64,000 nt of DNA from Phyllosticta citribraziliensis (taxonomy: Eukaryota), in contig NW_027117346.1 of NCBI RefSeq assembly GCF_038025025.1, forward strand, positions 372,001 through 436,000, written 5' to 3'. The position numbers and the translations under genes are program-made. Below are positions 13,171 through 51,641 of this stretch, in pieces. The notes below the pieces were generated by a model. The model was given only the letters and a program-made list of their open reading frames with translations, ran no database searches and was not told the origin of the DNA. Each line of letters opens with the position of its first letter. The first letter of the stretch is position 1.

Positions 13171-13311
13171 AAGCTTCCCCTATTTTTCCCTTTCTTTTCC
13201 TTTAGTGGGTCATAATTACTGCATAGATTGGATCTATAGATTTAGGAGTATAGATTAGGACTAGATAGTAGATATAGGTAAGGGTGCCTATAAACTACTT
13301 TAGCTACTACC

Positions 13312-13498
13312 TATAGTAGTAGATCCTATAGGGATCTAGTGTAGCTGTAGGATCTAGTATAGCTATTAGATGCTAAGGGTAAGCTTAGCAAGCTTAGTAG
13401 TTATAGGGGATAGGTACTTTAGCTATATAGATAGCCTAAGTAATAGGACAACTCTTATACCTAAATTAGTACTATAAATATCTAGTTAGATTGTTATA
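13312..13498 (+). repeat. 3' LTR of A1
   Basis: Direct repeat of 2403-2589, followed by TSD ATTAG. Confidence 0.95.
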
Positions 13499-18805: not shown

Positions 18806-19390
18806 TATTACAGGTTGGCTAAAAACCTATAATTATATTAAATACTACTTAGTATTAAGTACTAGGTATACCTATACTATAACTACTAGCTATAACTATA
18901 AGCTATATATACTAAAGTCACCTAACTCCTTAAGAGCTATAGCTACTTAGATAATTTAACCCTAGTACCTATATATATATTACTAATATAATAATAGAAA
19001 TAAGAATAGAACCTCCTATACCTATAGTAGGGACTTAGCTAAGTAGTTAGTTTTAAAAAGTATATTACTACTAATAAGCTAGTAAACTACTATATAATTT
19101 AGGATTAAGATAAGGTCTCTTCTCTTATAGTACCTACCTTCCTTTAGTTATAATTCCTAAGGTAAGTTAGGTAATAGAATATAAAAGGATCTTATTATAT
19201 AAATACTATAGATAGCTATCTTTATTTTCTTATAATTAATACTCCTAAGTAGACTCCCTACTAACTTAACTTATACCTTATTATATACCCTTCTTACTTA
19301 GCTTTATCTCCTATACTTATACACCTTATTATTAACTAGATAGTTACTTAGAACTAGCCTACTAATTAGGTAACCTATTAGCCTATAATA
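18806..19390 (+). repeat. 5' LTR of B
   Basis: Direct repeat of 35360-35944; the differences seen are transitions. Confidence 0.95.
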
Positions 19391-22300
19391 GAAAAATAAA
19401 GATTATTAAGTTACTATATCTTTTCTTATACTAACTCTCCTAATACCTAGGAAGGTCTAAAACATCCCCTACTAAAAATACTAGGTATATATTCTAGGAA
19501 TAATACCTATACTAGTTAGCTAAGCCCTACTCTAAGTCTTATAGTATAAGTACTAGTAGATACCTCTATAAGCCTAGAGGACCCCTAGGTATATAGCTAG
19601 AGCTACTTTATATAAGAAGTAGAGATTAGTATATAAAGAGAATATAGGTAGTCTCCTACTCTAAAACCCCTATAAGTAATAAGGTTATATTATATAGATT
19701 AGACTAAATTAAGAACTAGTTAATTATAGCTAATCTAGGATCTAGCTAAGAGGGTAGAGTAATAAGGTTAACTTCTATAGCTCCTTTAATCCCTTCTATA
19801 TAAATAGAAGGAAACCCTAATAACTCTCCTTTAGAACTAGAGGAGAATCCTATCCCCCTATAAATTTATAAAGTTAGTTTAAAGAATCTAAAGCTATTTA
19901 AGGTAGTAATAGAATAGGGGCCCTATATAAAAGTTATTCCTAAGCTCTTTAATAAACTTTTAAGATCTAAGGAGATACCTAGTAAGAGTTAGTATAATAA
20001 GACTTATAAGGTAGAGATTATTAAGTTACTCCTTAATAAGAAGTACTAAGTAGCTACTATAAAAGAAGTAATCTCCTACTATAGATAGTTTATAGACTAC
20101 TATAGAAATAAGATTTTAGTAATCCTACTAGTCTATATAATAGATAAAATTACTAAAGAATAAACCTACTATAAATACTTATCTTATAAAGGAATTATAT
20201 TCTCCTATAATTTAGCTTATACTACTACTAGCTAGCCTACCTAGAAGTATTATATTAAGATCCTAGATCTATCTCTCCTTATAGATAGAAAAGTACCTAA
20301 GTACTAGGTCTAGCTCTACTAGGTTAAGAATAAAATTTAGACTAACTATAACTAATTTATCTTAGATAACCCTATAGATACTAAGGTAGTAATTATAGTA
20401 TATATTATATCTAGAATAAGTAGTAAAGTAGCTAATTACCTTCTTCTATTCCTTAATACTAAAGAAAAAGAAGAATTACTTATTACTAATACTAATTTAT
20501 ATACCTTTCTAGGGGATAAGTTTAATAATCCCTTTAAAAGAAAGGAAGCTAAGGATAGTCTCTAGTACCTATACTTCTATATTAGTAATAATTTCTAATT
20601 ATATATTACTAAATTTATAGCTCTAATTCTAAATATAGACCTATCCTAGTCCTAATAGAAGGAAGAGTTTTATACCTCTTTAAACCCTTAATTAAAAATA
20701 TATATAATACTCTATAAGGATAATAACTATATTAAGTTCTAGGACTATATTAATAAGGTATCTACTATTATATATAACCTAAAGGACTACTAAGCTTCTT
20801 ATATATAAGTAAGTAAATCTAAAGCTAAATAATAGTAGGAGGAATATTCTAGAAAGAAAGCTAGTATTAGCTCTACTACTCCTAAGAAACCTAGTTATAC
20901 TAGTACTTCCTTATATACTACTAAATCTAAGGAACCTAAGAAACCTATAGATAATAGTAAAAAGGATACCTACTATAATTATAGGAAAGAAAGATACTAG
21001 GTATAAGATTATATAATTTCTATTAAGGAAATAGATATATAGCCTAAAGAAGATAAGCTAGTACTTAAACTAGAAGAATCCTCTAAGAGTAGTAACTTAA
21101 AAAACTCCCTTTTCTAAACTCTAGGCCTACCCTAGAGATAATAATTAGGACCCTCTAGTTTAAAGGTATAGATATTAGAATTAATAATTTTATAGGAGAA
21201 TAAGCCTTTACTATACCTATTAAGATCTATAAAGATAGGAAAGCTCTCTATACTAAGGTACTAGTTAATACTAGTACTTTTAGGACCTACTTTATCTACC
21301 TATAACTTATATAATACCTTAATACTCTTAGTATATATAAATATAAAATTACTAGGGGTATACTTAAGGCCTTAGGATTTAATAGATAAGTAGCTACTAA
21401 ACTAAAATATACCTATTTCCTTACTCTTACCCTTAACTAAAAAATATATAAAATATAGGCCTTTATTATAATAATTAGTTATAATAATCTTATACTTAGG
21501 AAATATTTCTTTTCTTAGAATAACCTTTTACTAGATTATAAAAAATATAAGCTTCTTAGCTAGGATAATAAAGCTCTACCTATTTATAAAAAAATACTTC
21601 CCCTAGTTTATTTAGTAGTGTACTAATAAGGAAAAATCTTAGAAATATACTAAAAAGACCTAGAAAGAAGAGAAAAAGCCTAAAAAGATATAGAAGAGAA
21701 AATAGATAATCTAGGGATTAACTCCTTATTTATTCCTTTAAACTCTCTTTTTATATAGGATAAAAGCTTAGAAGTCTAAGTTATTACTCTCTAAGAAGTT
21801 AATATAAGAATTTAAGAACTTACTTTACTTAAAGAAGATAAAGAAACTATATAACTCCTTAATAAATACCTCCTACTATAGTATAAGGAATACTAAGATA
21901 TCTTTTCTAAATAATAATTAGATACCCTACCCCTATACTAGCTAGGTATTAATTATAGGATTACTATTAATAGAAATAAACCCTTTTCCCTCCCTCTAAG
22001 TCCCTTATATAGAATAATAATTAAATAACTATAAGCTATAAAGAAGTATATCCTTAAAAACCTTAAAAAAGGCTTTATAGTTAAAAGTACTATACTATAT
22101 ATATTACTAATTCTTATAGTCTAGAAGGGTAGTAGTAACTAGAGATTCTATATAGACTACTAATATCTTAATACCTATACTAAGAAAGACCTATACCCTC
22201 TACCTCTTATCTAAGAAATTCTCTAAAGAATTACTAAGGGTAAAGTATATATAAAGCTAGATATCTAATAAGTATTTTACTAAATTCTTATAGACCTAGA

Positions 22301-24503
22301 ATCCTAGGACCTAATAACCTTCTATATATAGTATAGATATTTTAAGTATACTATACTCCCCTTTAGACTCTATAATAGTCCTACCTTATTCTAGTACTTT
22401 ATTAATAAAGAACTTATACTATACCTAGATAATTTTATTATTACTTTTATAGATAACCTACTTATTATCTTAGAGAACCCTTAGGAGTATAAGTAATAGG
22501 TTAAGAAGGTACTTAAATAACTATAATATACTAACTTATAGGTAGATATTAAGAAATCTAAATTCTCTATTACCTATATAAAGTTTTTAGGATATATTAT
22601 CTCTACTAATAGAATCTCTATAGATCTAGATAAGATATCTACTATATATAAATAGAACCTATTAATAACCCTTAAAGGACTTTAAGCCTTTTTAGGGTTT
22701 TATAATTTCTACTAAAACTTTATCCCTAAATATAGTAGAATAGCTAGACTACTAGAGAAACTCTACTCTAAATAGAAATTTTATATCCTTAATAATTTTA
22801 AGGTCTAGATATTCTAATAACTAAAGAAGATAATAACTAGCTCCCTAGTAATAATATACTATAATCTTAGGCTAGTTATATATATAGAAATAGATATAAG
22901 TAATAGAGTAGTAGCTAGAGTCCTATTATAGTATTAAGAAACTAGAGAATAGAGGCCTATAACTTTCTACTCTAAGTTAATATTAGATATAGAACTCTAG
23001 TATAAAATCTATAATAAGGAGTTCCTTACTATTATATATAGATTTAAAGAATAGAGAAGTATACTCCTAGGCCTATATTAGCTATTTATAGCTATTATTA
23101 ATTACTAGGCACTTAAATACTTCTCTACTAAATACTAACTTAATACTTAATAAGCCTAATAGTTAGAGAAACTTGCTAAATACTACATTAAATTTATATA
23201 TAGGCTAGGAAGAGATAACATTATTACTAATACTCTTACTTAAAAATAAGAAGAGCTATAAACCTAGAAGAATAAGAGTATTATTAGGTATATAATATAA
23301 CTAGTAGCTAAAGACTAGATCCTTAACCTAAATACCCTTAATATTACTTTTAGTAGCTTATTCCTAATCCTAGATAAAGTACTAGAAGTAAATAAAAAGT
23401 CTACCTTATTAGAAGAATAGTATATATAAGCCTATAAACCTAATAAGAAGGATTAGACCTTCTATAATAACTACCTCTTCTTTAAAGAGCGACTAGTTAT
23501 TCCTAAGTAAGATATACTATATATAGAGCTTATAAATAAAATTTACTTATTACCCTTAATTATATATACTAGATAAAATAAAACTTAGGAAGTAGTAAGA
23601 AGATACTACTACTAGCTAGATATCTCTTAGTAGATTAATAATATTATAAAAGTATACTATATATACTAAAGGAATATAAACTTCTATAATAAGAAACTAG
23701 GACTACTTTAACCCCTTCTAATCCTAGACTAGGTATAGTAGTATATTACTATAGACTTTAAGGAGATACCTAAGGATAAATCTAGGTATAATATAATTTT
23801 AGTATTTATAGACTAGCTAAGTAAGTAAACCTTTAGCCTTCCCTACTATAAGGTAATTAATACTAAGGGTATTACTTAACTATACTATTAGTATATCTAG
23901 AGAATATATAGTATGCCTAAATTAGTAGTTTCTAACTAAGGACCCTAATTTATTTTAGATTTCTAGAATAAGCTATATATAATTATAGGAGTTAAGTAGA
24001 AGCTTACCTTAGCCTACTACTCCTAGATAAATAGTACTACTAAAATTATAAACTAGGTTATTAACCTATACCTATAACTATATATTAACTATTTTTAGGA
24101 TAACTAGGTAGAAAGGCTCCTAGTACTAGACTTTATATAAGTTATACTCCTATATAAATCTATAGGCATATCCCCCTATAAGTTAATCTTTAGCTACTAG
24201 CCTAGTTTCCTATTTAATTAGGAGAAATATACTATATATCTAGAACCTATAGAGAAACTATCTTATATTACTATATAAAGATTTACTAAATATATATAAG
24301 AAAGTATATAGTAGGCTAAATAATAGCTAGATCTTACCTAGGAATAAATAGTATAAGCTATAAACTAATTCTAGTAGGAACCTAACTTTAAGGAAGGTAA
24401 TAAGGTATATATCTCTATATAAGGTATAAGTACTAACTAACCTAGTACTAAGCTTAATACCTAGAACTAAGGGCCCTACTATATTATTAAGAAAAAGGGA
24501 TAC

Positions 24504-24926
24504 TATCACGATAGGCATACACGCACCTATATAAGTACTAGGGCCAGCACGGATAAACCCAGCATTATATAGTTACAGGAAGCACAAGCCTCACCTTAGG
24601 TAGCAGCCTACTACAGCTCAGGCTAAAACCTATAGGCTAGTACTAGCTACTACAGCCTAGCACCAGCCACTACAGCCCTAGGCAGATACTATATAATAGC
24701 CTATTAATACCTCACCTTTATAACTTACCTAATAATAACTAAGGACCCTTATATAAAGGACGAGAGGTAGAATAGTATAAAGAAAGGACTAGGAAATATA
24801 TAGGTAGTAAGTATCTTTTATATTTTATTCTTTTAACTTATTATATTTAATTAAGATATATATATATTCTCTAGCAGTTTGCCTTTAGCCCTTACCTATA
24901 TAATAAGAAATCTATAAGTTATAATA
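24504..24926 (+). repeat. 5' LTR of C
   Basis: Direct repeat of 32314-32736; contains a short internal ~20-bp tandem repeat (ctagcaccagccactacagc-like). Confidence 0.95.
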
Positions 24927-27900
24927 GATATAAAAGATTATTCTAAGTTTTAGCTCTATCCTACTTCTTTACCTATAAAGGTATTATAATATTTGACCTA
25001 AGTGACATTATATACAGCTATAGTCTTATATAAGACTGCTTATTACTTTTCCTTAGTAAACCTAAGTTATCTTTATTAGGCGCATCAGTATTATCTAAGG
25101 ACTAAGGAGCATTAAGTATATATTAACTATAGAAGTCTTTAGTTAAGGCTATAGGGTAGTATATAAATATTTAAGAGGCGTCCTATCTATAACCTACTTA
25201 AGGGATATTCTAAGTAGAAGACTATAAAGACAGTATAGCTAAGAATAAAGCTAATACATCTAGTACTACTAAAGGTATTAGTACTAGTTAATTAACCTAA
25301 TAAGATTCGCGCGAAGGAACTAAAGATTTGTATAATACTAGATACTTATTAAATAATAATAAGAGAGGACCTACCCCTATTCTCCTATATAATTTCTACT
25401 TAGTCTTAGTAGTAGAGGTAAAAGAACGTACCTAAGACCTAGGGTCAACTTGTACTATTTAAGCTCTAGTTATAGAGGCGTTTATAAAGGTACCGCGCTT
25501 AGATATTAATTAATTTAAATCTAAGATTACATCCTTAAATAAGTCTTAAGTGTAGTAGTAACTAAACTATGCATAAAGGTAGAACTAGGCTCTTAAGTAA
25601 ATGCTCTTAAACTATACTAATAGACTAAGGGAAGCCTTAAGGGAAGGATATATTAGGCCCTCTCTATTAGCTTAGTACCTAAGACCTATTACCCTCTCTT
25701 AAGATCCTTCTACTAGTAGAGTAATAAGGACTCTTAGACCTCCTCTAACCTATATAAGGGAAACTACTACTAAAACCTCTACTTTATCTTTAAGTAGTAA
25801 GAAATACTAAAGTAGTAAGGTTCCTAATCCTCCTCTTCTTACTAATAGAGAAGACCCCTTATATAAATACTAGACCCTCCTTATATAAAATAAAATTAAA
25901 TAAAACCATGATTACTTTACTAAAGATATAGTAGAGGAGACTAAATAGAATATTATAGGTTATATTATTTCCTATATTAGTAGAGAAGTCTTATATTACC
26001 TAACTCCTTTCCTTACTTCTTATATAAAGGCTAATAAAGTTACTCTAGATAAGAATATCTTTAAATTCCTAGATAACCTCCTTTAGAGTCTATATAAATA
26101 TAAGGATATAAAGAAGTAGTTATACTCTCTTATATACTATATTCCTATAGACCTTTAGAAGTTTTAATTAAACTTTATATAATTAGCCTTAGATGTAGAT
26201 CTTCCCTAAGAATAGTAGAAAGAGGACTTTTATAATGTAATAGATCCTCTCCTTTAAACCTATATAGTTACTATAGAGTAAGATAAGGATGTTAACTTTT
26301 ATAAGTACCTCTAATAAGCCTACCCTATTACTTAAAGTCTTAGTAACTACCATTCTAACTATAGAAAACTAATACTTACGTCGCGCGAGGAATAAGTAAA
26401 GAAGAGATAATAAGAATAAGTAAAGATAACTGCCTTAGGCAGTATAAGTACTTTATCTTCTAGTTATACCTAGGCGCGATCTATATCTAGGGCTCCCTTA
26501 TATAATATAACCTGTAAAGGTAAAGTAGAAGTCTATATAGAGATTAGACTGTATAATTACTATAGCTAGTTTAGCTATTTATAGAGATAATGCCTATAAC
26601 TAGAGATAAAGGCAATAGAGTTAGTTAAAGAAGAAAGCGCTAAAGATGTCTATATAAATAAAGGAGATTAGTCTTTATTAGAAAATAATAAGACCTAGGT
26701 AAAGTCTCCTGCTATAGGTCTAAACTTAGAGTAATACATATTAAGGGTTCTTATATAAATCTTAGTTACTTTATTAGAGGTGTACCCTTTACTATACGAA
26801 CCTTAATTATATCTAATAGCCGCGCCTTAGAAATTTATGCCCTAGCTAATACTAGTACTAGTTATATAAGTTTTATTTACCCTAAGCTACTACTAACTCT
26901 CTAGTCTATAGGTGCTATAAAAAAGAGAATAATAGGTAAAGGGCTTAATATTACTAGGTTTAACTAATATATAAATAAGAAAGTTAATTTTTACTTTTAT
27001 CTTTAACTCTACTTCTAGGATTAAATGGTTTCTACTTATACTTTTATTTATAATATTAGCCGCAATAACATGATTCTTAGGTAATAGTTTTTTAACTAGT
27101 ACGATGTTCTTCTAGACTATAAATAATATAAACTAGTCTAGAGATAGCTACTAGTTAACTAATCCTTTTAGCATCTTTTATACCTACTAAAAGTCTCTAT
27201 ATAAAGTAATAAACTACAGAAAGAACATTAAGTAGATATAGACTATAGAGATAAAAACTTTAATAAACGCCTTCTTCCCTTAGTATAGGTTATTAAGGGA
27301 ATTAAATTTTAAACTTAAGATGCTTTTAAGCTTTCTATCTATAAAATACAAGTTATACTAATAGAGATCTATACTATCAACCTTATACAAGTTTAAGCAG
27401 CTCTTAAAGATAAAGAAACTAAGGAATTATTAGCTTCTAAGCTACTAGCTACTTATAAGGAATTTTAAGATGTGTTTTCTAAAATAGAGTCTAATAAGCT
27501 ACCACCGTATTATATAGGAGTTAATTATAAAATATCTCTTATATATAATAGTCTACTAGAGCTTCTGCCTAGCCCTCTCTATAGAATGTCTCTAGAACAG
27601 CTTAAGGCTGTAAAAGAGTATATTATTAAGAATATTTAGAAAGGCTTTATTACTAAAAGCTTTACTACTTACGCTTCTCCTATTCTAGTAGTAAAAAAGC
27701 CTAGTAGGGGATAGAGATTTTATATAGACTACTAATAGCTTAATAAATAAACTACTAAGGATTCGCACCCCCTCCCTCTTATTATAGAGTTACTTTAGCG
27801 CGTTAGAAAGGGCAAGATTTATACTAAGCTTAATATTTAATAAGCTTTCTACTACATCTATCTTACTAAGGATTCTAAAGATAAAACCACTTTCTATATA

Positions 27901-30549
27901 AGATATAGGTTATTTAAATACCGTGTCTTACCTTTTAGATTAAGTAACAGACTAGTAGCCTTTTAACATTTTATTAACCAGGTCTAATTTAAGTATTTAG
28001 ACAATTTCATTATAGCTTTTATAGATAATATACTTATTATCTCTAAAAACCCTGCAGAGCACGAGGAATAAGTAAAAAAAGTACTAGTAAGACTATAAAA
28101 GGCGGGACTATAGGTAGATTTAAAGAAGAGTAAGTTTTTAGTTACTTATATAAAGTTCCTTAGATACATTATTTCTATAGAAGGCATTTAAATAGACCTA
28201 GATAAGGTAGAACCTATATAAAACTAGCTAATACCTAAAACCCTTAAGGCTCTTTAATCCTTCCTAGGTTTCTATAATTTCTACTAATAATTTCTCCCTA
28301 ACTATAGATAAATCAGCCGGCTATTAGAGAAACTATACTCTAAGGCAAAATAGTAATAACTAGGACCCCTAGAAGAAGAGGTAATTTAATAACTTAAGAA
28401 GCTAATATATAGTAATACACTCCTAGCTAATTATAACCCTACTCTTAACACTCATATAGAGACTAATATAAGTAATAGAGTTACTACTAGCGTTTTAATA
28501 CAGCTCTAGCAACCTTTATATAATTAGAAACTAGTAGCATTCTACTCTAAGGTAATGGCGGACGCAGAACTTTATTATAGAATTTTAGATAAAGAACTAC
28601 TAGCTATTAAGAATAGACTAGAAGAATAGAGACTAATACTTATTAGCCTTAAAAAACCTTTTCTTATAATTACAGACTATCAGGCATTAGAGTACTACTC
28701 TACTAAACGACAACTTAATTAATAATAAGCTAGATAGTCTAAGTTTTTTATAGAGTTCCATATATAATTCTCCTATTAACTAGGAAAGGAAAATATTATT
28801 ACTAATTACCTTACTTAAAAATAAGAAGACCTAAAGACTTAAAAAGAAAAAGTAAGGGCTATATAAGAGATATACCTTATCCTACTAGAGACTATTATCC
28901 CTCTTTCTATTTTAGAATAAGAACTTCCTCCTCTAGTATTATTTTTAGATAAACTCCTCTATGCAAACTAGGAAGATTCTAAATTAGAACTCTAGAGATA
29001 GAAAGCCCTCTTAAAGGACCTTAAATAAAGAAATAGTTAGGAACTAAAGGATAGTCTTTTACTATAATATAGTATACTCTTTATATTAGATCGCGACAAC
29101 CTCCGCGTAAGAATACTTAATACTTTATATACTACCTATATAACCACCTATCCTAGTATTATAAAGATGTAAAAACTCCTTAAGTAATATTACTATTAGC
29201 TAGCTATAAATCGTATAATTAATATTTATAGGCGAGGATGCCATATTTGCCGCTAAATAAAAGAGTTTTATAATAAAGACCTAGGCCTTCTATAACTCCT
29301 AGAGATTCCTACTTAACCCTGGCAATACTTAGCTATAGATTTTAAAGAGATGCCTAAAGACTAAAAGGGCTATAATGTAATTCTAGTTATTATAGACTGG
29401 TTAAGTTGAAGAACCTTTAGTTTGCCTTATATAAAAAAGATTAATACTAAAGGAGTCTCTAGGCTCTTTTATAAATATATCTACTATATTTATAGAAACC
29501 CTAAGTCTATTCTATCTGACTAAGGCCCTTAGTTCATCTCAGCATTTATAAATAAACTATATAAGCTAACTAGTATAGAGTAGTATTTTAACTTATCCTA
29601 CTACTCTTAAACTAATAGTATTATAGAGATTGTTAATTAGTATCTTATATAAAGATTAAGACCTTTTATTAATTACTTTTAGAATAATTAGTCTAATCTT
29701 CTACTATTAATAGACCTCGCACAAGTAACACTTCCCTATAAAGCTACTAGACTTTTACCTTTTAAGATTAAGTTAGGATATTCCCCTTAATTATACTATA
29801 ACTAGTAATAAAGAACTAAAACCCCCTAGCAACTAGAGAAAATAGCTTACACGGTAGTATAAATACTATAAAAGAGAAGATAAGAAGCTTTTAAATTTAT
29901 AAAGAATCTTATTCTTAAATCCTAAGAGCGTATATACTAATAAGCTAATAAATACTGTCGCGTACTAGACTTTATAGTTAGAGATTATATCTATATTAAG
30001 AAAACAGGATGGTCTACTAATTAGCTAAACCTTAAATTAGACTTTCCTAATACTAGACCTTTTAAGATTATAGGAATAGAAGGACCCTCCTATATCCTTA
30101 ATCTTCCCTTATATATAAAGATGGTTAACCTTTTCCACGCTAATAGGCTATATAAGGCTAAAATAGAACAGCTTCCTAGTTAGGAATATACTAAACCTAA
30201 ACCTAAGATTATTTAAGATGAGCCTAAGTGGGAAGTAGACTATATTTAAGCTAGTTAAGTCTTATATAGGAAGCTTTAATACTAAGTTAAATAGACTAGA
30301 TATAACTAAGATGACTAGTAGTATAATGCAAGTTCTTTTAGTAGCGCACTATAGAAAATTAAAGAATTCCACTTATTACACCCTACTATAGTAGGACTAC
30401 TAAAAAATCTAGAAAAATAGAAAACTGCCTTCCTTTAAGAAGAACCCTAGATTAAAAGAGAAAGTAATAATAAAACAAGTTACTTAGGCCTATAGTAAAT
30501 ATTATAAAGATATAGAAAGTAGACTAATTAGTTTACTATCTACCCTTAT

Positions 30550-31900
30550 ATAAATACTATTAATCTTAACTTCTACTTTCTAGTCTCTCCTTTTTATTAC
30601 TTATTCCTTACTATCCCTTCCTTTACTTCCTTCCTTTTCCCTTCTTCTTATTATAACTATTATTATATAAGATAGTCTCCTCTAGATCCTCTAGCTTATT
30701 AGGCAGGATGTCCTACTTAGCTAAAGCCTAATTAGTTTAATCCTCTACCCTAGCTTAATAGTATAAGTTCTAGAACTCCTCTATATAAATTTTATCTTCA
30801 CACCTCTTATAATAAGCAGGCAGCTTAGCACCCTTTAAGTTACTAATAGTATAGTCTAAGTTGCCTATACCCTAAAGGCAGTTGGCGCAGCGGCCCTATA
30901 AGAAACTAGGCAGGTAGTAATAACTAATAAATGCATAAGTATTAGTATTATCGCAACACTTAGTGCAGCTAACAGGGTTATTAATTCTAGTATACTAGAT
31001 AAGAAAAGTATCGCGCGAGCTAGCTTAAGTTTTAACTAATAAGTAGTTAAATTGCTAAGCAGAAACTATAATATATAAGCAAGGCATACTATTACCTAAG
31101 GCCAAGATGTATTTAGCGCGCTCTTATACTTTAGAACTACTAAGGTGCACCTATATAGTTAGTTAGATAAGAATCCCTTATATTAGTAAGATAAACTTAC
31201 TTACGCGACACTCTCTATATTCTTATAAGGAATATAAAGCGTCAACTTAAAGTCCTACTTAATAGGCACCTTATTAGAGCTAACTAGCAACGTAGCAACA
31301 TAAATCTTACTATTACTACTATTATATAAAGCAGCAGGCAGTAAGTACTTAGCTGCTAGAACCTAACAAGCCGCAGGATTATAATAATAGTATATATAAG
31401 TAGGCTCTTTACCTTCTTCCTCTAAAACAGGCTGCATAACAGTAAACCAGCAGCAATATAGCATAATGTGCTAGTTAGTAGCAGGCTATATAGCCGCGGA
31501 CGACGAACCTCACGCGATAACTAATAATACTAATTAAGTAGAACCTAACACTATAGTATACTATAGGTAAAGTAACAAGCCTATAGCTATTCCTAGCTAA
31601 ATAAGTAAAGCCTAGCCTAACTAAGTCTTTATATAAGTATCCTCCTCTACAATTATATCAGTCAGCAAGACGGGACGATAAAGTAGTAAAACCTAGATAT
31701 ATAATACTACTTAATAGCCTAGATAATAATTAGTAATAGTCTAAAGAGATAGAATTAAAGTTTACTTATCTTAGAACTCTATATAATAGTCCTTATAGAT
31801 ACTACTAGCTAAAACAGCTCTTTAAGTAAGCGGCGACTATAACAGATCGCAAATAATACTATATAATAACAACTTAATACTACAACTCTTATATAATAGT
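30550..31900 (-). pseudogene. Antisense accessory gene in element C with a DUF3716-like Cys motif (RIP-inactivated)
   Basis: Minus strand 31006-30851 reads (de-RIP) FLIQxTGIxNPVSCTKC...AFxxCxxLPGFLxGRCANCLWG...C. The codons TGC ACT AAG TGT and CGC TGC GCC AAC TGC are intact. A GTAAGT...CTAAC...TAG intron lies at ~31200/31204-31151. Outer limits are approximate. Confidence 0.65.
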
Positions 31901-32313
31901 AATAAGTCCTAATAGACTAGACTATAATAAGTAGCAGATATATTAAGTGTACGGCAGCTAGGAATGTCTACTTTACTATTAGTAGGGTATAAATTATTTA
32001 AATTATTAGAACCTTTACACGCGACAGTTAGTTTACTAGATTATAGCTAAATTAGACTAGGGCAATAATATACTTTAATAGGGAGCTTTAGATATAGCTA
32101 AGTAAGATAGCAACCTTCTATAGGTCGCGCAGTAAAAGAGATAGTAATAGAAAGAGATAGTATAGTAGTAGACCTAGACTAATAATTATACTTTATAACT
32201 ATATAGAACGCTTAAATTACTAAATCACCACTATTATATATTATAAGTCTATACCTATACGAGCGCCTATAGCTACTAATTCCTATAATTTTAGCTTCTC
32301 TTTAAGGGGGGCA

Positions 32314-32736
32314 TGTTATAATAGACATATATGCGCCTATATAAGTACTAGGGCTAGTATAGATGAACCTAGTATTATGTAGTTATAGGAAGCATAAGCC
32401 TCACCTTAGGTAGTAGCCTACTATAGCTTAGGCTAAAACCTACAGGCTAGCACTAGCCACTATAGCCTAGCACCAGCTACTATAGCCCTAGGTAGATACT
32501 ACATAACAGCCTATTAATACCTCACCTTTATAACTCACCTAATAATAACTAAGGACCCTTATATAAAGGATAAGAGGTAGAATAGTATAAAGGAAGGACT
32601 AGGAAATATATAGGTAGTAAGTATCTTTTATATTTTATTCTTTTAACTTATTATATTTAATTAAGATATATATATATTCTCTAGCAGTTCACCTTTAGCC
32701 CTTACCTATATAATAAGAAATCTATAAGTCGTAATA
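32314..32736 (+). repeat. 3' LTR of C
   Basis: Starts TG right after the PPT; followed by TSD GATAC. Confidence 0.95.
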
Positions 32737-33199
32737 GATACTCCTATAAGCTAGACCTCCTAGTATATACTAAGGTTATAAACCTCTTCTATATAGACTA
32801 CTTATAGAAGGCTTATCCCCCTCTACTAGGCTAGATCCCTATTCCTAAACCTCTAACTATCTACTAGAACTAAGAAGAATATAAAGTTAACTTTATATAT
32901 AATAGTAAGGTAGAATAAGGTACCCTAAAGTACTAAGTTTAGTAGAAGGGATATAACTAAGATAATATATAGTATAAGGCCCTAGATATAGTTAGTATCC
33001 CTAATTAAATTAAGGAGTACTATACTAAGTTCCCTAAAATACTAGGACTACTAAAATACTTATAAGACTAGAAGAATATAGTAGTATATAAGCTAGATTA
33101 TAAAGGTATTATAAAGGATAATAAGCCTACTCCCTAAGCTACTAACTAAAACTATACCCTCTAATACTACTAGAAAAAGTAGGATACCCCTAGGAAAAC

Positions 33200-35100
33200 C
33201 TACTATATACTAAGAAAGTAGACTATTAAGGCTCTTCCTCCTCTCTCTCCTATAAACCCTTAGCCTTAGACTAATAGGTAAGAGCCTTAGCCTAAAGCTA
33301 ATTACCTAGACTATATAATAGTAGAGGTATACCCTAGTAGTTTATAAAGGTATTATTACTAAAGAAACTAACTAGGGAACCCTAAAGGGTAATAATTTAG
33401 GTATAGGTATAGGTATAGATAGGTACTATAGGAGTAGGTAATAGTAATAATAAGGAAGATAAGGAGGATATCTTAGGACTAGAAACTAATAATAGTATAG
33501 TAATAGAGGAACTAGGAATAGGTAGAGAAGCTATATATACTAGTAGGCTAGTACTACTATAGCTAGATATACTAGATAAAGAAGAAGGGCTAGACTCCCT
33601 AGATAAGGAAGAAGGACCTAGCTTATTAGAAGGAATATACTTACTAGGTATAGGTAAGGATAAAGAAGAGTAGGCTACTAAGGGGACTATAGAAACTATA
33701 TAACTAGAATAACCTATAGGTATATATAGAACTATTACCTCCTACTTAGGAAGAGCAGCACTACTAGGTAAAGAAGTAGTAGATATAGTAGAAGTAGTAG
33801 AAGTAGAACTAGTAGATAGAATAGCTAGTATATATATAGATAAAGGTATATTAATAAATAGACTAGTAGGGCTAGCCTTAGTCTCTTTAGATAAAGAAGC
33901 TCTAGTATCTAGTATAGGCTTATCCTCTAAGGATAAACTACTAAAACTAGCTATAAAGTTATCTAAGTAGTTAGGGACCTTACCTAATAGATTATACTAG
34001 TTATTATAAATATAGTTATTAGAGTTATATATACTATAAGAGGAAGTACTATTATCCTACTTATAGTTACTATAGCTACTACTAAAGGAACCTAGGACCT
34101 AGTAATAACTAATAAATAGATAGTAAATACTACCTAGTAGTACTATATATATATATAGTACTTATAACCTATAGCCTATAGGATACTAGTAAACTAGATA
34201 GCTATAGTAGAAGCTTAAGAATAATAATACGCCAGGTTATTTACTAAAATAGAGGGAACTATAAAAATGCCTATATAGCTATAGGGTAATAATAGGAGCT
34301 CCTTATATATACTATAAGTAATATTACTTCCTAGAGCCTAGGATTCTATTAGTATAACTCTAAGCTAAAGAATAGATAGATTACTTACCCTACTTAAAGT
34401 AGCCTAAACCTCCCTTAAGTATAGGATATATATACTACCTTTATTAAATCCTTTAGGTTTAGGTTCTAGTAAAGATAAGCCTAAAGAACCCCTACTAGAA
34501 CTCTTAGAACTAGACTCTTCCTTAGCTCTTCCCTTTCCTTTATATATAGGTAAGGGCTACTAGTAAAGGTAATAAGGTAAAGGTAGGTAGTTAGAAGGGC
34601 CTATAACTAGACTAATAGAGCTATAGGAAGGACTAATACTAGGATATATATACTTAGGTTAATAAGCCTAAGGATAATAGTAAGTAGTAGTAGAAGTACT
34701 ACTAGAGGGAGTAGTATAGCTATATAGTATAGTATATATAGATAAAGTAACTAAGTAGGTAGGAGTATATATAGGACTAATAGTATAAGGCTAGCTAGTA
34801 GGAGTAGGTATTAAAGGATATAAAGATATAAACTCTAAAGATCTACTAGAGGAACTATTACTACTAGCTATATAAATTATTAGTACTAAATACTTAAACC
34901 TTAAGGATAAGGCTTTACTTACCTTATAAACTACTATCTATACTACTAGAATAACTAGAACTACTAGAACCTATAGGATAATTAATTAGGGTAAAGCTAA
35001 TTATAATAAAGGCCTTAGATTATTAGTTAGTTAAGGCTATACTATAGGCTAAGGGTAAACTTACTAAAGAAGATAAGAGGTAGGGTATAATAAGTATAGT
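33200..35100 (-). pseudogene. Antisense accessory gene in element B with a DUF3716-like Cys motif (RIP-inactivated)
   Basis: Minus strand 34202-34036 reads (de-RIP) AIQFTGIxxAxGCxxC...PFxxCxxVPGSFGGSCGNCKWxDxxSSCS, with a 2-nt slip in a (TA)n run. Three candidate ~50-bp GTAAGT introns at 35064-35014, 34922-34868 and 34388-34338. Ser/Pro-rich C-terminal region. Outer limits are approximate. Confidence 0.6.
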
Positions 35101-35359
35101 AATAAAGGTTAGAGCTAGAGGTAGGGGTAGAAAGCCTTTATACTAGACTTATACCTATAGGTATAGCTATAGGCACGCCTACTAGAGTACCTACTCTAGT
35201 ATTCTAGGTATATAGAAGCTTTAAGATAAACTAACTCTCTATATAGAGCTAAATACTTAAACCTAATCTATACCTACTAAGGTACTAAGGTATAATACCT
35301 AAATAAAATAACTACTCTTATCTATAGGTATACCTTAGGCTAAACCTAGAGGGGGGTAA

Positions 35360-35944
35360 TATTATAGGTTAGCTAAAAACCTATAATTATATTAAATACT
35401 ACTTAGTATTAAGTACTAGGTATACCTATACTATAACTACTAGCTATAACTATAAGCTATATATACTAAAGTTACCTAACTCCTTAAGAGCTATAGCTAC
35501 TTAGATAATTTAACCCTAGTACCTATATATATATTACTAATATAATAATAGAAATAAGAATAGAACCTCCTATACCTATAGTAGGGACTTAGCTAAGTAG
35601 TTAGTTTTAAAAAGTATATTACTACTAATAAGCTAGTAAACTACTATATAATTTAGGATTAAGATAAGGTCTCTTCTCTTATAGTACCTACCTTCCTTTA
35701 GTTATAATTCCTAAGGTAAGTTAGATAATAGAATATAAAAGGATCTTATTATATAAATACTATAGATAGCTATCTTTATTTTCTTATAATTAATACTCCT
35801 AAGTAGACTCCCTACTAACTTAACTTATACCTTATTATATACCCTTCTTACTTAGCTTTATCTCCTATACTTATACACCTTATTATTAACTAGATAGTTA
35901 CTTAGAACTAGCCTACTAATTAGGTAACCTATTAGCCTATAACA
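35360..35944 (+). repeat. 3' LTR of B
   Basis: Ends ...ATAACA, followed by TSD GTCCT. Confidence 0.95.
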
Positions 35945-38900
35945 GTCCTACTCTAATAACAGCTTAGTACTAAAGCTTACTCTATCTATACCTTTACTCC
36001 TATTAATAATTTAGAGTATACTAAACTTTATTTATTAGAGCCTATCTCTTAAGCCTTTAGTATTAGTAGTAATAAACCTTACCTCTATTATACTATCCCT
36101 TATAAATATTATAACCTCTTAGATATATTTTATAATACTAACCTACTCCCTTAAGCCTATCTATAGACTAACTTCTATATAGAACTAAAGGATAGTACTA
36201 AACCTAAGGACCTTAGCTATATACTACTATAATATACTAATAATATCTAGTTAGCTAAGATTAAGTAGTATATATAAGAAGGTATTAATCTTAGTATATT
36301 AGAGCCTAGTAAGGTAGGTATAGCCTTACCTATTTTACTTATAGCTAAGCCTAATAGTAGTATTTATTTCTATATTAACTATTATAAGCTTAATAAACTT
36401 ATAAAGAAGGACTACTATCCCCTCCTATTACTAGATAAGATAATTAGCTAGATAAGAGGAGTTAAATATATTACTAAGCTTAATATTAAGTAGGCCTTTT
36501 ACTAAATCTATATTATAGACTAGTAGACTAAGGACCTACTTATATTCTAGACCTACTATAATACCTATAAGTACTTAGTTATACCCTTTAATATAGCTAA
36601 TAGCCCTAGTACCTAGTAATAGTTAATTAATAAGTACCTATTCTACTATCTTAGTAAGTATACTACTATATATCTTAATAATATCCTTATTTATAGCTAA
36701 ATACTTATAGATTACTAATAGTATATTAGAGAGGTTCTTACTTAGTTATATAAGTATAGTTTATAAGTTAATATTAATAAGTATAAGTTCTATATCTAGG
36801 AAATCTAGTTTTTAGGTATTATTATCTCTATTAATAGTATTTATATAGACCCCTCTAAGATTAATATAATTATATCTTAGGAGTAGCCTATAATAGTAAA
36901 GTAGGTCTAGTCCTTTCTTAGTACTACTAATTTCTACTAGTAATTTATTAAGGACTATAGTAAGACTACTAGGCTATTAATATAACTAATATATAAGGGT
37001 ACTAATTAGTAGTAGACTAATATTAAATAATAGTTATTTAATAGTCTTAAGTATACCCTTATAATAGTACTAGTCCTTACCTACTTTAACCTATCTTATA
37101 AGATAGTTATAGAAATAGACTTATCTAATTAGACTAATAGTAGCCTTCTCTCTTAGTATAATAATAAGTAATATCTTTACCCTATTATATACTACTCTAA
37201 GATTATAGTACTAGCTAAGCTTAATTATACTATCTATAATAAGGAGCTCCTAGCTATTATTTATACCTTAGAGTTATAGGAGCCTAATCTTAAGGCCTAT
37301 TAGATACTATTTATAGTATTTATAAATTACTAGATATTATAATACTTTACTATAATTAAGTAGCTAACTTATTATTAAGCCTACTAGGCTAAACTCCTCT
37401 TAGAATATAACTTTAAGATTATATATTACTCTAGCTATACTAATATTAAGGCTAATATACTTACTTATTATCTTTAGGATACCCCTACTACTAATAACCC
37501 CTAATAGTAAATATAATACTAAACCTTACTCCTAGCTAATAAGCTCTTAGCTAGAATATATAAGGACTAGAAGCTAGCCCCTATTAATAATAATAATAAT
37601 AATATATTTATACTCTAGTAATTACTTATAGCTAATACTATAGATAATACTAAAATAAATAACTAGAGGTATTATACTAATAAGCTAGACTTACCCTTTA
37701 TTATTAATAGGTAATATAATATCTTTATAAATAGTTATCTTATTATATCTATTAAACTCTAGCTACTCCTTATCTATTATATCTATAAGTAGCTACTTAC
37801 TAGCTACCCTAGCTAAACTTAGCTATATAACCTTCTAGTACCTTAATTTTAATTTTTATACCTTATCTTACTTATATCCTAAGTTATAGATAACTATCTA
37901 AACTATATCTATATTTATAAAGCTTACCTAGCTATTTTAGGCTAGCTATAGCTACTACCTATTCTATTATAGCTATAGTAGTATATTACTATAGACTTTA
38001 TTAGCCTACTACTATATAGTAAGGGTATAGATACTATCCTAGTTATTTATAATTATTTTAGTAAAGTATAATATCTTATTACTATAGATATAATAAATAA
38101 TAGGACTATAGCTAAGGCTATAGCTTATATACTTATAAACTATATCTTTACTATATATAGTTTCCCTCTCTCTATTATCTTAGACTATAGTAACTAGTTT
38201 ATCTCTTACCTATAGAAAGGCCTTACTTATATTATTAGTATTAGCCTAAAGCTATCTACTAGCTATTATCCTTAAACTAATAGCTAGATTAAATAAGCTA
38301 ATTAGGACCTTAAGAACTACTTAAGATAGTTTATTAGGTTCTATTAAGATAATTAGTAACTACTACTATCTATTACCTAGTTTATAGCTAATAGTATACT
38401 ATATAAGAGCCTTAATAGCTACTCCCCTTTTTATATTTATTATAGCTATAAGCTATAATTTAATTTTAATACTAAAGCTACTATTTATAGTATTTATAGA
38501 CTAATTATAGATACCTATTCTATATAACTATAAACTACCTAAGCTATTACCTATACTATATAATAAGTATAGGATAAGACTAAGTATAGCCTTATAGTTA
38601 TATAGTAGTAAATAGCTATCTAAGCTAACTACTAGTATTAGGATTATATTATTAAACTAGATAAGTATATATATATTTATATAGACTATATATATATACT
38701 CTATAGCTATCCTACTATACTTAATTTTTATAATAATAGTCTATATTAAGTTATTAATATATATAGTAACTAGGCTATATTATAACTACCTACTAGTTTA
38801 TATACCTATAATAAATTTAATATCTTATACCTTATTATTACTAGTAATAACCTATTACCTAGCTAATAACTAGCTAATAGCCTAGCCTTATAAGATAATA

Positions 38901-39971: not shown

Positions 39972-40919
39972 ATGTCGACCCTCGGCAAAGTCATCATCGT
40001 CACTGGCGCCTCGAGGGGTAAGCTTCGCCATCCCACCATGACTTCCCGTCGCTTGTCTGAAAATGTTCACCCGCAGGCATTGGCCTCGCCATCGCCCAAT
40101 TCCTCCTGCAAAAGCAATGCAGGCTCGTCGTCGTGGCCAGGTCCAAGGAGCCACTCGAACGCCTCCGCGCTGAGCACCCCGACCGAGTCTTGACCCTGTC
40201 GGGAGACTTGGCCGACTTCTCCATTGGCGCCCGCGCTGCAGAGATTGCGACCTCGACCTGGGGTCGCATTGACGGCCTGGTCGTCAACCACGGCGTGCTC
40301 GAGCCCGTCAAGAAGATCAGCGACACCGACGCCGACGAGTGGAGGACTGCCTTCGACATCAACGTCTTTTCCGCCGTGTCCCTGGTAACGTTGCACGAGT
40401 CCACCTGGCGCTGAGCAACCCACCATCTGACAAGTCTCCGCGCCCACAGGTCAAGGCTGCGCTGCCCGCGCTGCGCACCTCCAATGGCCGCATTGTTCTC
40501 GTCTCGTCTGGCGCGGCCGTAACGTCTTATCCAGCATGGGGCGCCTATGGAGCAACCAAAGCTGCCATCAATCACATGGCTCAGACGCTTGCAAACGAAG
40601 AACCCGACGTCACCACCGTGTCCATTAGACCCGGCGTCGTCGACACTGACATGCAGACAAACATTAGGTCAACCCATCACAAGAACATGGATCCCAAGGA
40701 CGCAGAAAATTTCTTGGGTCTGAAATCAGGTGGGAAGTTGCTGAAGCCCGAACAGCCGGGAAATGTCATGGCTCGATTGGTTCTAGATGCCCCCAAAAGT
40801 CTCTCCGGCCAATTCCTCACGTACGTGGTCTTGTCCCACCCAACCTTGGGACCCTGCCAGCTAATAATCCCTTTTTCAGCTGGAACGATCAAGCCATTGC
40901 GGCTTTTCAAGAGCCTTGA
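39972..40919 (+). CDS. Short-chain dehydrogenase/reductase (sepiapterin reductase/benzil reductase-like, yeast YIR035C/IRC24 type)
   Basis: Exons 39972-40017, 40077-40384, 40450-40820, 40880-40919 with GT-AG introns. Motifs TGASRGIG, NHG, SSGAA, YGATK (YxxxK), RPGVVDT. Confidence 0.93.
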
Positions 40920-40999
40920 TGTGGCAGGTAACCTGGGCTTGGGCATCGTTAGCCAAGATTCAAACACAAGTGGAATACTGGTAGAGAATCTGTTGCGTG

Positions 41000-41095
41000 G
41001 CTCAGGTGAAAGATGAAAAGTCTCGACACGTGTAACAGCATTAGGCGTAAAGCCTTCTGGCTTAGCATGGAATGTGATCTTTTGTCATCACTGCG
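41000..41095 (-). ncRNA. Box C/D snoRNA, snR53-like
   Basis: C box GTGATGA 41091-41085, D' CAGA 41059-41056, D CTGA 41005-41002. The D' guide ATTCCATGCTAA is complementary to conserved SSU rRNA TTAGCATGGAAT (yeast Am796 region, from memory). The D guide CTTTTCATCTTTC is complementary to LSU GAAAGATGAAAAG. Confidence 0.8.
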
Positions 41096-42290: not shown

Positions 42291-42988
42291 ATGTCTGACC
42301 GCGAATTCGGAGGTTCGTTCGATTCCACCCACCTGCCTGCTGGCCAAACTTGACCACGGGCACGCGCAACCGCGTCGCAACAACGTCAGACTGACTGTGG
42401 ACACAGGCAACGATGACCTCTCGCTGCCCAAAGGTACGCGCTCCCCCCGAGTCGCCCTGGAATGAAGACGCGCCGTCAACAAGCACAACACTCCCTTGCG
42501 GCGGTCTTGGTCTCCTCAGCGGCTTGCGCTAACCACGGTACAGCCACCGTCCAAAAGATCATCAACGAGATCCTGACCAACGACCCTGGCGTCTCGTTTG
42601 CCAAAGAAACTCGCGACCTGCTGATTGAGTGCTGCGTCGAATTCATCACCATGATCTCCTCCGAGGCGAACGACATTGCGGAGAAGGAGGCCAAGAAGAC
42701 AATCGCATGCGAGCATGTCAAGACAGCGCTGGAAGAGTTTGGCTTTGGCAACTACGTCGACGAGATTATGCAAGTCGCAGCAGATCAACGCAAACAGCAG
42801 GCGGTGCGTCCCATCCTCAGTGCTCCGCTTTGTCTGAGCCTGGCTAACGGGTGCTGCAGAACCGGGAGAAGAAGCAGAGCAAGATGGAGCAAAGCGGCCT
42901 CAGCACAGAGGAGCTCATCAGGCAGCAACAGGAACTGTTCAGATCAGCGACGGACAAGTTCAACTCGGGGCCCCACGAAGAATCATGA
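42291..42988 (+). CDS. NCB2: Negative cofactor 2 beta subunit (Dr1/NC2-beta, histone fold)
   Basis: Exons 42291-42312, 42407-42433, 42544-42803, 42860-42988. Reads MSDREFGGNDDLSLPKATVQKIINEIL...FAKETRDLLIECCVEFITMISSEAN...SGLSTEELIRQQQELF. Confidence 0.95.
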
Positions 42989-43440
42989 ATCTAACGACGG
43001 CGGGACATGGGTGCTGAGATAGAGGGAGAGCTCTGGCGTTATGTGTGGGGATGCATTTGGCGTTCGGAGTTAGGGCCAGGCCAGGCGGTCAAAGGGGCAC
43101 GCATACAGGATTTGGGCATACCAGACACATGGCTTCGTACCTCGCTTTTTCTAAACAAGCACATGGATGATTTACAGCGATATGGATCCAGAAGGACAAG
43201 GGGCGTGTGACCGGCAGAAGACCGAGAGGAAAGCTTCGGGGAGCCGCTTGGCGCCCGATGACGTTTCCGAAGCGAGCGCCGCGTCTGGGCGAGGGACGCT
43301 CCATTCCGCTTCAGCCCAGGTGCCTCTACAACCCAAGACGCTAGTTTCTGCAAAGAAAGCTTCAACCTCAGCTGCCTCGATAACAATCTTCACCTTGCAC
43401 TCCTCATCTCGCCATCACCACCCCTCGGCGTTTGCTCACC

Positions 43441-50744: not shown

Positions 50745-51641
50745 TTCTGGAGTCAAAGTGTGCAAAGAACAGGGTAAACTGGTTCCAAAGTTGATTGTGT
50801 TGGAAGGGGGTTGGAGAGGAAAAGACTCTGCTGGCTCTCAGGGAGACCACATAGTTATAGACCAGGACAGGCATCCTTTCACGTGGCTCCGTGGTCAAGA
50901 ATTGGACATTGTCGGCATAGCCATGGAGTTGTAAGGCATGTCTTTGGGGAGGAGCTGTGGTTTCGTGTGGAGTTGTGAGGGGAAGTGTGGTTGCCGCATT
51001 CGCTTAATGGTCGAGTATGGACCGCGGCAATGACTTTTTGCGGGAGAGCTTTGATCGGCATGCAGTCAGCGAGCATCTAGCCAAAGACGTCGCCTTTTCT
51101 ACCATCATCACTCTCAATATCCTTTCAAGCGTTCATCAGTTGCAGCAGCTCCTCATTAAAGTGGGAATTTTGTCCCTGCCTCGCACTCATCTGATGCCGT
51201 GAAATATCCCTCACGTCTGTCACGGCTCTACGACGTCGAGCGGCCGACCGTAAGTGGCAGGCCGGCTCGACATGCCCCCGCAGAGCTGAGATTCTGGGGC
51301 AAAGCTGGGGAACTACTGATAAGCAGCGCCTATCACGCTGGCTTCAAAATCAGCAGTCGACCACGCATTTGCAGACGGTGCATTGATAACCGCGCAGTCC
51401 AGCCTGAATGCCGTCCACGCTGGGCGTCGGATTGGATTCTCGCTCTCACCTCACATATGCTCGGGTCTATGTACCTCGACCTAGCGAGAACTCCAGGGCC
51501 GCTCCTTCATCCACCAAAACATCCTGACTGTCAACTAGAATTGTGATGTTGATAGCCCACCGCCCGTATGAGGCTTGCATTCTCTCTGTACGTTCGTGGC
51601 ATTCGCACCCGCCCACCAGCCGATCGTCCTGCCACAACGAT

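Follow-up and report, generated by a model that had tools for sequence, protein, structure and literature searches.

The first 40 kb of a 64,000-nucleotide stretch of Phyllosticta citribraziliensis DNA (assembly GCF_038025025.1, contig NW_027117346.1, positions 372,001 to 436,000; from here: the window, with positions counted from its first letter) contain nested, decayed Ty3/Gypsy retrotransposons. They raise the question whether two of these, elements B and C, once carried a protein-coding gene on the strand opposite to pol. An earlier note on this DNA, made from its letters alone, had proposed such a gene for both elements, with a six-cysteine motif resembling the fungal domain DUF3716 (PF12511) and located between the chromodomain and the 3′ long terminal repeat (LTR). 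Here we report that B and C are likely to be different elements that were killed by repeat-induced point mutation (RIP) and that each of them once had an opposite-strand DUF3716 accessory gene between the end of pol and the polypurine tract and 3′ LTR. Intact relatives of this gene occupy the same place in other Gypsy elements, occur beside several further classes of transposons and are usually accompanied by an array of the palindrome CGTACG, of which we read a fossil in C.

Self-comparison of the window recovered two LTR pairs, with C nested within B, and the two distinct Gypsy elements of the earlier note were thus found again (Table 1). The spacers from pol to the 3′ LTR measure ~1.8 kb in C (30481-32320) and ~2.3 kb in B (33063-35359), in agreement with the ~2 kb that had been described between chromodomain and 3′ LTR. 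The chromodomain itself was not detected when decayed tiles of B and C were searched for Pfam Chromo, and the chromodomain-like end of pol in C was recognised by eye alone. Element D, a third Gypsy fragment (36251-38353, tblastn with the C pol), has no LTR inside the window, and its AT-rich tract stops near 39900. The G+C content is 24-33% in the first 40 kb and 50-63% in the remainder of the window. Because the AT-rich part has a TpA/ApT ratio of 1.84 and a (CpA+TpG)/(ApC+GpT) ratio of 0.10, compared with 0.47 and 1.27 in the GC-rich part, it is read as RIP-mutated. For the individual spacers the second ratio is 0.02 in B and 0.41 in C. Since both elements are dead, nothing would be expressed as a working protein from the copies in the window.

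RIP converts the Cys codons TGY into the Tyr codons TAY, a change at TpG, and it converts TGG or CAG into TAG. Tyr and stop codons are therefore expected from a decayed domain that was rich in Cys, Trp and Gln. The same decay makes such a pattern easy to imagine by chance, and controls are therefore needed. On the minus strand of C, the motif IQxxG lies at 31000-30986, followed by Cys codons at 30967, 30958, 30889 and 30880, with TAT at the other two Cys positions (30922 and 30853) and TAG at the Gln (30997) and Trp (30874) positions; the translation reads ..LI*YTRINNPVSCTKCCDNTNTYAFISYYYLPSFL*GRCANCL*GIGNLDY.. (asterisks are stop codons). In B the motif is split by a frameshift near 34148 and is read as ..AI*FTSIL*AIGYKYY.. 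in one frame and as ..LFISYY*VLGSFSSSYSNYK*DNSTSSY.. in another. Its second half has TAY at the Cys positions 34107, 34074, 34065 and 34038 and TAG at the Trp position 34059. Hence, the minus-strand Cys motif claimed for both elements is present, with the family spacing kept save for the frameshift in B. At the six Cys positions, C has TGY four times and TAT twice and B has TAY throughout; the five Cys surviving in C all align to TAY in B. Beyond the B domain, ~200 codons on the minus strand of 33400-33990 are open with one stop and are rich in Ser, Thr, Leu and Pro. The plus strand of the same stretch is purine-rich with a fairly open acidic frame, and the whole may be an antisense tail or a compositional effect. 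A candidate for a third copy near 36143-36403 on the minus strand failed on closer comparison.

Further copies of both families were found in contigs from 4 of 16 sequencing runs, labelled as other organisms, which were compared over the range 30400-35360 (no contig covered 31230-31561). The gene-bearing stretches of both B and C are covered by contigs from these four other runs and are multi-copy. Less mutated copies of the B and C families occur in runs X7 and X9, with many A>G and T>C differences (in X7 at 112 and 99 places) and high summed depth. Two nucleotides at 34148 are absent in X7 (3 contigs, depth 502/2179) and in X9 (1 contig), and their absence would join the two frames of B.

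Homology of the two relics was assessed by RIP-aware scoring, in which each pair of codons is scored by the odds of homology between the residues that they may have encoded before RIP. When a 30-codon half-motif of C (30851-30940) was searched against all six frames of positions 1-40000 with C masked, the best match was the B half-motif ending at 34038 with 28.5 bits, and the next match had 19.4 bits. None of 300 codon-shuffled C queries reached 28.5 bits (mean 19.3, maximum 27.5). The similarity between B and C claimed by the earlier note thus held for this half-motif. It did not extend further: blastp of B frames against C frames gave no match, and the remainder of the open reading frame (ORF) had no detectable similarity, since B was not retrieved with the proposed exon 1 of C, with the N-terminal portion of its exon 2 or with its tail. 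A RIP-aware comparison of the whole spacers yielded long diagonals of low density, with controls scoring equally high.

The assignment to DUF3716 draws on profile searches. PF12511 ranked first of 24,736 Pfam families for 56 residues of C translated as one tile (30836-31003, with stops as X), with E 0.014 and 15.7 bits over profile positions 11-48 of 59. It was matched by none of 100 equally long control tiles drawn from the two strands of the AT-rich part; three of these matched other families at E 0.025-0.058, and one matched a true reverse transcriptase (RT). Longer relic reads of B and C (132-173 residues) had no Pfam match. A hidden Markov model (HMM) built from 21 intact ORFs of the relatives described below had C as its sole match in six frames of the 40 kb (independent E-value 9e-4). 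The RIP-aware family profile gave 44.8 bits for C and 44.6 bits for B, with the next match in the window at 22.3 bits. After the 13 columns of the search pattern were set to zero, C still had 23.5 bits; the window maxima of column-shuffled profiles had a mean of 18.0 (standard deviation 1.4), and 0 of 100 reached 23.5. The resemblance to DUF3716 put forward in the earlier note is therefore borne out for C by Pfam, by our own HMM and by the RIP-aware profile.

Several results weigh against this assignment, above all for B. The C tile stays below the Pfam gathering cut-off for PF12511, which is 22 bits, and the B tile had no PF12511 match in the Pfam search, whereas C had it as its top family. 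A phmmer search with the C relic against 1.8 billion representatives returned one match only, judged to be a spurious repeat protein that matched through GEANCLKSLGDLQ-like repeats, and two word-based protein searches with the relic, for near and longer lengths, returned nothing. Since the search pattern behind the family profile came from B and C themselves, the 13 columns of that pattern are circular, and the support for B comes from our own RIP-aware scoring. With these columns zeroed, the flanks of B were the top of the sub-profile at 15.5 bits yet within the window-wide null (mean 14.1, standard deviation 1.2, maximum 17.1). For comparison with the 11.4 bits of the first half of B, 3636 blocks of 22 codons were scored, of which 168 had at least 10 bits and 37 at least 12 bits. 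The N-terminal columns of the family match neither B nor C in the window. Taken together, the relics in B and C are, as judged from their sequences, decayed remains of a DUF3716 family member and not members by the Pfam rule.

Intact relatives were obtained by scanning metagenome contigs with a degenerate DNA pattern for P-G-x-[LF]-x-G-x-C-[AG]-N-C-x-W, which gave 36 loci (cited here by L numbers). Thirty have a PF12511-positive ORF, with E-values from 2e-8 to 8e-17, L011 and L021 being among them after choice of frame; L017 and L033 are partial, and L001 has no open frame over the match. Three loci (L023, L025, L027) were rejected as chance pattern matches with stops around the match. Common to the relatives is the sequence ..SHRPSYINAxLIQSRG-x6/7-CxxC-x8/9-PFxEC-xx-[LV]PGHFGGxCGNCKW-x6-C.., followed by an acidic tail. 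The IQxxG part of the pattern in the earlier note was recovered in them, though it was absent from the search pattern, and the Cys motif that the note had expected of intact relatives is present at all 30 PF12511-positive loci.

Two of these loci, L019 and L015, are Gypsy elements with the layout seen in B and C. In both, a minus-strand DUF3716 gene follows an open pol (Table 1), in L015 after a gap of 336 nt. In L019, a polypurine run at ~4831-4845 is followed by TGTTACGGG; the polypurine tract and the start of the LTR lie beyond the DUF3716 gene. A gene inside the element, on the strand opposite to pol and between pol and the polypurine tract or 3′ LTR, was thus found in B, C and L019, in keeping with the antisense accessory gene of Gypsy elements that had been proposed. 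The pol proteins are 30% identical between L015 and L019, 37% between L019 and C and 27% between L015 and C.

The same gene subfamily is not confined to Gypsy elements. At L002, L004, L030, L034 and L035 it faces a hAT transposase in convergent orientation, 183-201 nt away. L030 contains a compact hAT element (4008-7343), whose zf-BED/hAT transposase and convergent DUF3716 gene lie between perfect terminal inverted repeats of 17 nt (4008-4024 and 7327-7343) and subterminal AATATTGGCA-like repeats; an 8-nt target duplication beside the inverted repeats was not seen. Further members lie beside OrsD/DEAD-helicase ORFs (L010, L022, L032, L036) and NDC10_II ORFs (L013), and a divergent member lies beside a Plavaka transposase (L014). 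With the L019 gene as query, 64 proteins were retrieved, all of them PF12511, including proteins of Botrytis, Histoplasma, Blastomyces, Aspergillus and Penicillium. As far as can be judged from these gene neighbourhoods, exchange between transposons (hAT, helicase/OrsD, NDC10-like, Plavaka) would fit at least as well as vertical inheritance in a chromovirus lineage, which the earlier note had favoured.

The protein reconstructed from the intact relatives has ~175-220 residues and three parts, namely an N-terminal conserved region (..GQxLAPxxH..RAVLALPG..SHRPSYINAxLIQSRG), the DUF3716 domain with six Cys and two His in the arrangement CxxC-x9-C-x10-CxxC-x8-C, and an acidic tail. The cysteines C88, C91, C101, C112, C115 and C124 are each present in 66-69 of 70 sequences, and the two His in 44-50 of 70. 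Together they form eight predicted ligands, which would suffice for two zinc ions. An AlphaFold model of the L019 protein (3982-4506, minus strand; 70 sequences) has a mean predicted local distance difference test score (pLDDT) of 86.3 and a predicted template modelling score (pTM) of 0.66. No counterpart of this fold was found in the PDB, with 0 matches by sequence profile, 0 by Foldseek at E<=10 and 0 chains with Z>=2 by VIA-align.

The earlier note had also placed a short intron with a GTAAGT donor before the motif in each element. Such strings do exist there (Table 1), yet they occur at chance frequency: 15 GTAAGT..branch..YAG strings were observed on the minus strand of the 40 kb, compared with 14.5 expected from Markov shuffles. 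The string in B needs no splicing because its 51 nt keep the frame. That in C measures 50 nt from the second GTAAGT and connects the motif frame with a more open frame upstream, but its ‘acceptor’ end overlaps a relic palindrome site at 31151-31158, and no N-terminal homology anchors it. The introns at these places were therefore not upheld. In the family, the L019 gene is uninterrupted from its Met to its stop codon in one frame, with a 99% match to a predicted protein of 175 residues. Several relatives (L005, L018, L030, L007) lack a Met in the open frame and have instead an ATG plus a few bases, then an intron-like string of 43-47 nt before RALVLYNAA. A 5′ intron in the family is plausible on these sequences, elsewhere than at the site first proposed. 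The presumed 5′ leader of L019 contains an intron-like string of 67 nt.

A second feature of the intact relatives is the overrepresentation of the palindrome CGTACG (Table 1). It is the most enriched hexamer in ten pooled element bodies (42.7 kb), with 528 instances against 16.4 expected (32-fold), and it reaches at least 5 times its expectation in 27 of the 30 PF12511-positive loci. At the three chance loci L023, L025 and L027, 0, 1 and 2 sites were counted. The array stops at the element ends: the inverted repeats of L030 enclose 17 of its 19 sites, and the interval 7316-10961 of L013 has 25 of 26. With one flanking base on each side the consensus reads T-CGTACG-A, with a mean spacing of 112-258 nt and a coefficient of variation of 0.39-0.84, from which the sites appear more even than random. 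Within ORFs, 56, 19 and 49 sites fall into the three codon phases, and since all three phases are occupied, the array appears to be kept at the nucleotide level. A literature search returned no paper on CGTACG enrichment in fungal transposons.

RIP turns such a site into T-TATATA-A, and a RIP-proof footprint was therefore testable in the window. Relic sites of the form Y-YRTAYR-R are frequent in C (Table 1), and half-preserved sites were found there as TCGTATAA at 29211 and as CTATACGA at 26792 and 32255. YRTAYR words have Y..R flanks in 46 of 68 cases in C compared with 66 of 215 in the repeats other than B and C (Fisher P 8.7e-8). The RIP-invariant form Y-YRYRYR-R has a density of 7.7 per kb in C, with 66% of the sites Y..R-flanked, against 7.4-12.2 per kb in intact DUF3716 elements and a background of 2.4-3.9 per kb in the flanks, the GC-rich half, D and other repeats. 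We read these sites in C as what RIP has left of a former (T)CGTACG(A) array.

HBZ of human T-cell leukaemia virus type 1 (HTLV-1) is a minus-strand protein encoded near the 3′ LTR. It offers an analogy to B and C in layout only, protein and host being unrelated. In plants, the elements Grande, RIRE2, Retand and PvRetro13 have opposite-strand ORFs between pol and the 3′ LTR that are conserved within families (PMC7264820). Position and strand are as in B and C; the host is a plant, the proteins are not known to be related, and the available part of that source reports no DUF3716. In fungi, the Gypsy element Boty has the antisense gene brtn (Zhao et al. 2011, Virology 417:248), which is located after pol and before the 3′ LTR and is cited in the accessible text of PMC8365987, PMC7264820, PMC4227169 and PMC5987419. 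As far as these texts describe it, Boty of Botrytis cinerea and Sclerotinia resembles B and C as a chromodomain Ty3/Gypsy element with an additional opposite-strand gene between pol and the 3′ LTR, a comparison at the level of layout. Homologues of the L019 gene in Botrytis hyacinthi and B. cinerea are 60-61% identical to it, on contigs of 6.7 and 4.1 kb, and may point to a link with brtn, which these matches can only suggest. The name BRTN is absent among the 64 homologues of the L019 gene, the supplements of PMC8365987 mention neither brtn nor DUF3716, and the literature searched nowhere states a DUF3716 identity for an antisense gene of this layout.

DUF3716 genes have also been described as passengers of a DNA transposon. 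REP9, a class II (IS3EU-like) element of Zymoseptoria tritici reported in 2021, has two of them, REP9-1 and REP9-2, and a change in REP9-1 expression alters the formation of pycnidia (PMC8232023). It is like B and C in its DUF3716 genes and differs in being a DNA transposon; in the part of the paper available, neither an antisense-to-pol layout nor a palindrome array is reported. Therefore, the ‘undescribed system’ of the earlier note cannot be called that, as the layout of brtn (in the accessible text of PMC8365987 and PMC7264820) and the DUF3716 genes of REP9 (in that of PMC8232023) were already in print. The relics are a new example, now named by family, of the layout known from Boty. Among host proteins with the domain, Neurospora crassa NCU05718 binds double-stranded TTAGGG directly (PMC4650311), and the DUF3716 protein PSC58 of Fusarium graminearum is called its orthologue (PMC10776026). 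According to PMC10776026 they have the same Pfam domain; they differ from the relics as single-copy host genes, and in the available text the DNA-binding part of NCU05718 is not mapped to the domain. NCU05718 is the sole experimental hint that DUF3716 members may bind DNA.

The remaining parts of the window provide the genomic setting. Positions 1-18288 contain other RIP-mutated repeats in inverted orientation (2441-7227 against 18288-13499, 96% identical, and 2-2412 against 9623-7213, 86%), in which neither Gypsy pol similarity nor a DUF3716 signal or palindrome footprint was found. The compositional switch near 39900 is sharp, and from there to 64000 the DNA has 50-63% G+C and ordinary genes.

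Table 1. Features of the window and of intact loci with DUF3716 genes. Loci are named before the colon; all other positions refer to the window.
Feature	Position	Strand	Details
Element B 5′ LTR	18806..19391	+	586 nt, 99% identical to 35360-35945; TCCT 4-nt flank at both outer ends
Element B 3′ LTR	35360..35945	+	Polypurine run AGAGGGGGG at 35348-35356 directly before
Element C 5′ LTR	24511..24930	+	420 nt, 92% identical to 32321-32740; start possibly ~7 nt earlier
Element C 3′ LTR	32321..32740	+	Polypurine run AAGGGGGG at 32304-32311 upstream
Element C pol	26731..30480	+	Pfam RVT_1, RT_RNaseH, Integrase_H2C2, rve; tblastn extent
Element B pol before C insertion	21162..24275	+	tblastn with C pol, 40% identity
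Element B pol, C-terminal part after C insertion	32742..33062	+	tblastn, C pol query residues 1120-1227
Element C decayed DUF3716 domain	30851..31009	minus	PF12511 top Pfam family; own HMM; RIP-aware profile
Element B domain, second half and acidic tail	33991..34119	minus	RIP-aware match to C 28.5 bits, to profile 44.6 bits
Element B domain, first half (IQxxG-x6-CxxC spacing)	34155..34208	minus, different frame	11.4 bits, ungapped, family spacing
Element C intron-like string	31151..31204	minus	GTAAGT at 31204 and 31200, CTAAC, AG at 31151
Element B intron-like string	34338..34388	minus	51 nt, in frame
Element C relic sites Y-YRTAYR-R	24504..32740		54 sites, mean spacing 154 nt; mostly TTATATAA, CTATATAA
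Gypsy pol ORF	L019:690-3782		RT, RNase H, integrase, SH3_Tf2-1, Chromo (E 6.7e-9)
DUF3716 gene	L019:3982-4506	minus	After pol
Gypsy pol	L015:330-3857
DUF3716 gene	L015:4193-4684	minus	Gap after pol 336 nt
CGTACG sites	L019		41 observed, 1.2 expected
CGTACG sites	L015		35 observed, 1.1 expected
CGTACG sites	L022		41 observed, 1.7 expected
CGTACG sites	L002		24 observed, 0.9 expected
Long ORFs with OrsD-like N-terminus and DEAD/Helicase_C	L022:418-4806, L036:3357-8024, L032:1457-3853, L010:3-1337		CGTACG array; adjoin DUF3716 genes
Short-chain dehydrogenase	40273-41016		GC-rich part
CBF/NF-Y histone-fold protein	42417-43022		GC-rich part
GFO/IDH/MocA oxidoreductase	49611-50837	minus	GC-rich part
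CFEM-domain ORF	53353-56625	minus	GC-rich part
Protein kinase	60362-62176		GC-rich part

How else could the minus-strand signals of B and C have arisen? That they are a chance resemblance, with Tyr read as Cys and stops read as Trp or Gln in low-complexity DNA, appears very improbable. Tyr and stop codons are indeed plentiful after RIP, and blastp, phmmer and Pfam on long tiles find nothing. Against this stand the four true Cys codons of C at family positions, the top rank of PF12511 for C with none of 100 control tiles matching, the shuffle and whole-window controls, and the occurrence of both matches at the sole place and strand where intact relatives have the gene. Even harder to believe is that the spacer was coding on the plus strand, either as a third ORF in sense orientation or as a C-terminal continuation of pol, with the minus-strand motif as its mirror image. 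It would account for the purine-rich plus strand of B at 33400-34000 and its one fairly open plus frame, but only the minus strand matches the family, and in the intact L019 the pol frame stops at 3782 and the minus-strand ORF is open. A separate DUF3716-bearing unit or gene fragment could also have been inserted independently into the 3′ spacers of B and C, which we consider unlikely. The gene subfamily evidently changes contexts, being found with hAT, helicase/OrsD and NDC10-like ORFs as well, and the spacers of 1.8-2.3 kb exceed the size of the gene. However, B, C, L019 and L015, with pols that are only 27-40% identical, agree in the position and strand of the gene, the stretch is not flanked by inverted repeats or duplications in the window, and contigs of other runs cover the motif stretch as well as the adjoining end of pol, though they are short and do not bridge the two. 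An accessory gene that belonged to both elements thus remains the likely explanation.

If so, the gene would have been transcribed from its own promoter in the spacer or in reverse from the LTR, and introns, if it had any, would have survived retrotransposition as they are antisense to the genomic RNA. The DUF3716 domain may bind zinc and double-stranded DNA, and the protein may act on the DNA of its own element, most simply via the palindrome array, thereby favouring expression or shielding the element from silencing. In its widest form, this suggests that the DUF3716 protein and the (T)CGTACG(A) array constitute a portable two-part module acquired by unrelated classes of fungal transposons (Gypsy, hAT, helicase/OrsD, NDC10-like and perhaps IS3EU), in which a DNA-reading zinc protein coats or marks its own element for expression or for escape from genome defence, with sites through coding and non-coding DNA at about one per nucleosome length. 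We regard this proposal, its site arrangement included, as tentative and rather doubtful. Three loci, L006, L011 and L014, carry DUF3716 without a CGTACG array, and element B is at background, with 3.0 Y-YRYRYR-R sites per kb and 22% Y..R flanks. The same four cases favour another explanation, that the gene is real and the array is read by a host factor, e.g. a transcription activator, or acts at the RNA level, the DUF3716 protein being unrelated to it; this falls short of an even chance and has to be taken seriously all the same. Among the papers listed for TCGTACGA, the one relevant here concerns Pseudocercospora fijiensis, in which a 19-nt promoter element with this word is present in extra copies where fungicide sensitivity is reduced; for the six-copy promoter form the authors report validation by targeted reverse genetics, according to the accessible text of PMC6637983. 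This promoter element hints that some fungal factor may read the TCGTACGA word. On the other side, gene and array co-occur on unrelated transposon classes (at 27 of 30 loci), the array ends at the element ends in L030 and L013, and D, a fragment that has no LTR in the window, shows neither gene nor footprint, as do the other RIP-mutated repeats of the window.

For annotation, these results indicate that the decay of Cys to Tyr by RIP hides such genes from standard searches and that short tiles and RIP-aware scoring recover them. They also suggest what brtn of Boty may be. Follow-up appears worthwhile as one gene subfamily is common to several transposon classes, usually together with a CGTACG array, the fossil of which is still present in C. 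That DUF3716, a large fungal family, recurs as a passenger in four or more classes of transposons, together with a palindrome enriched 32-fold and restricted to these elements, leads to the testable hypothesis of a self-recognising DNA binder. If this were true, a transposon would here have fitted its entire sequence, even its codons, to a single short DNA word.

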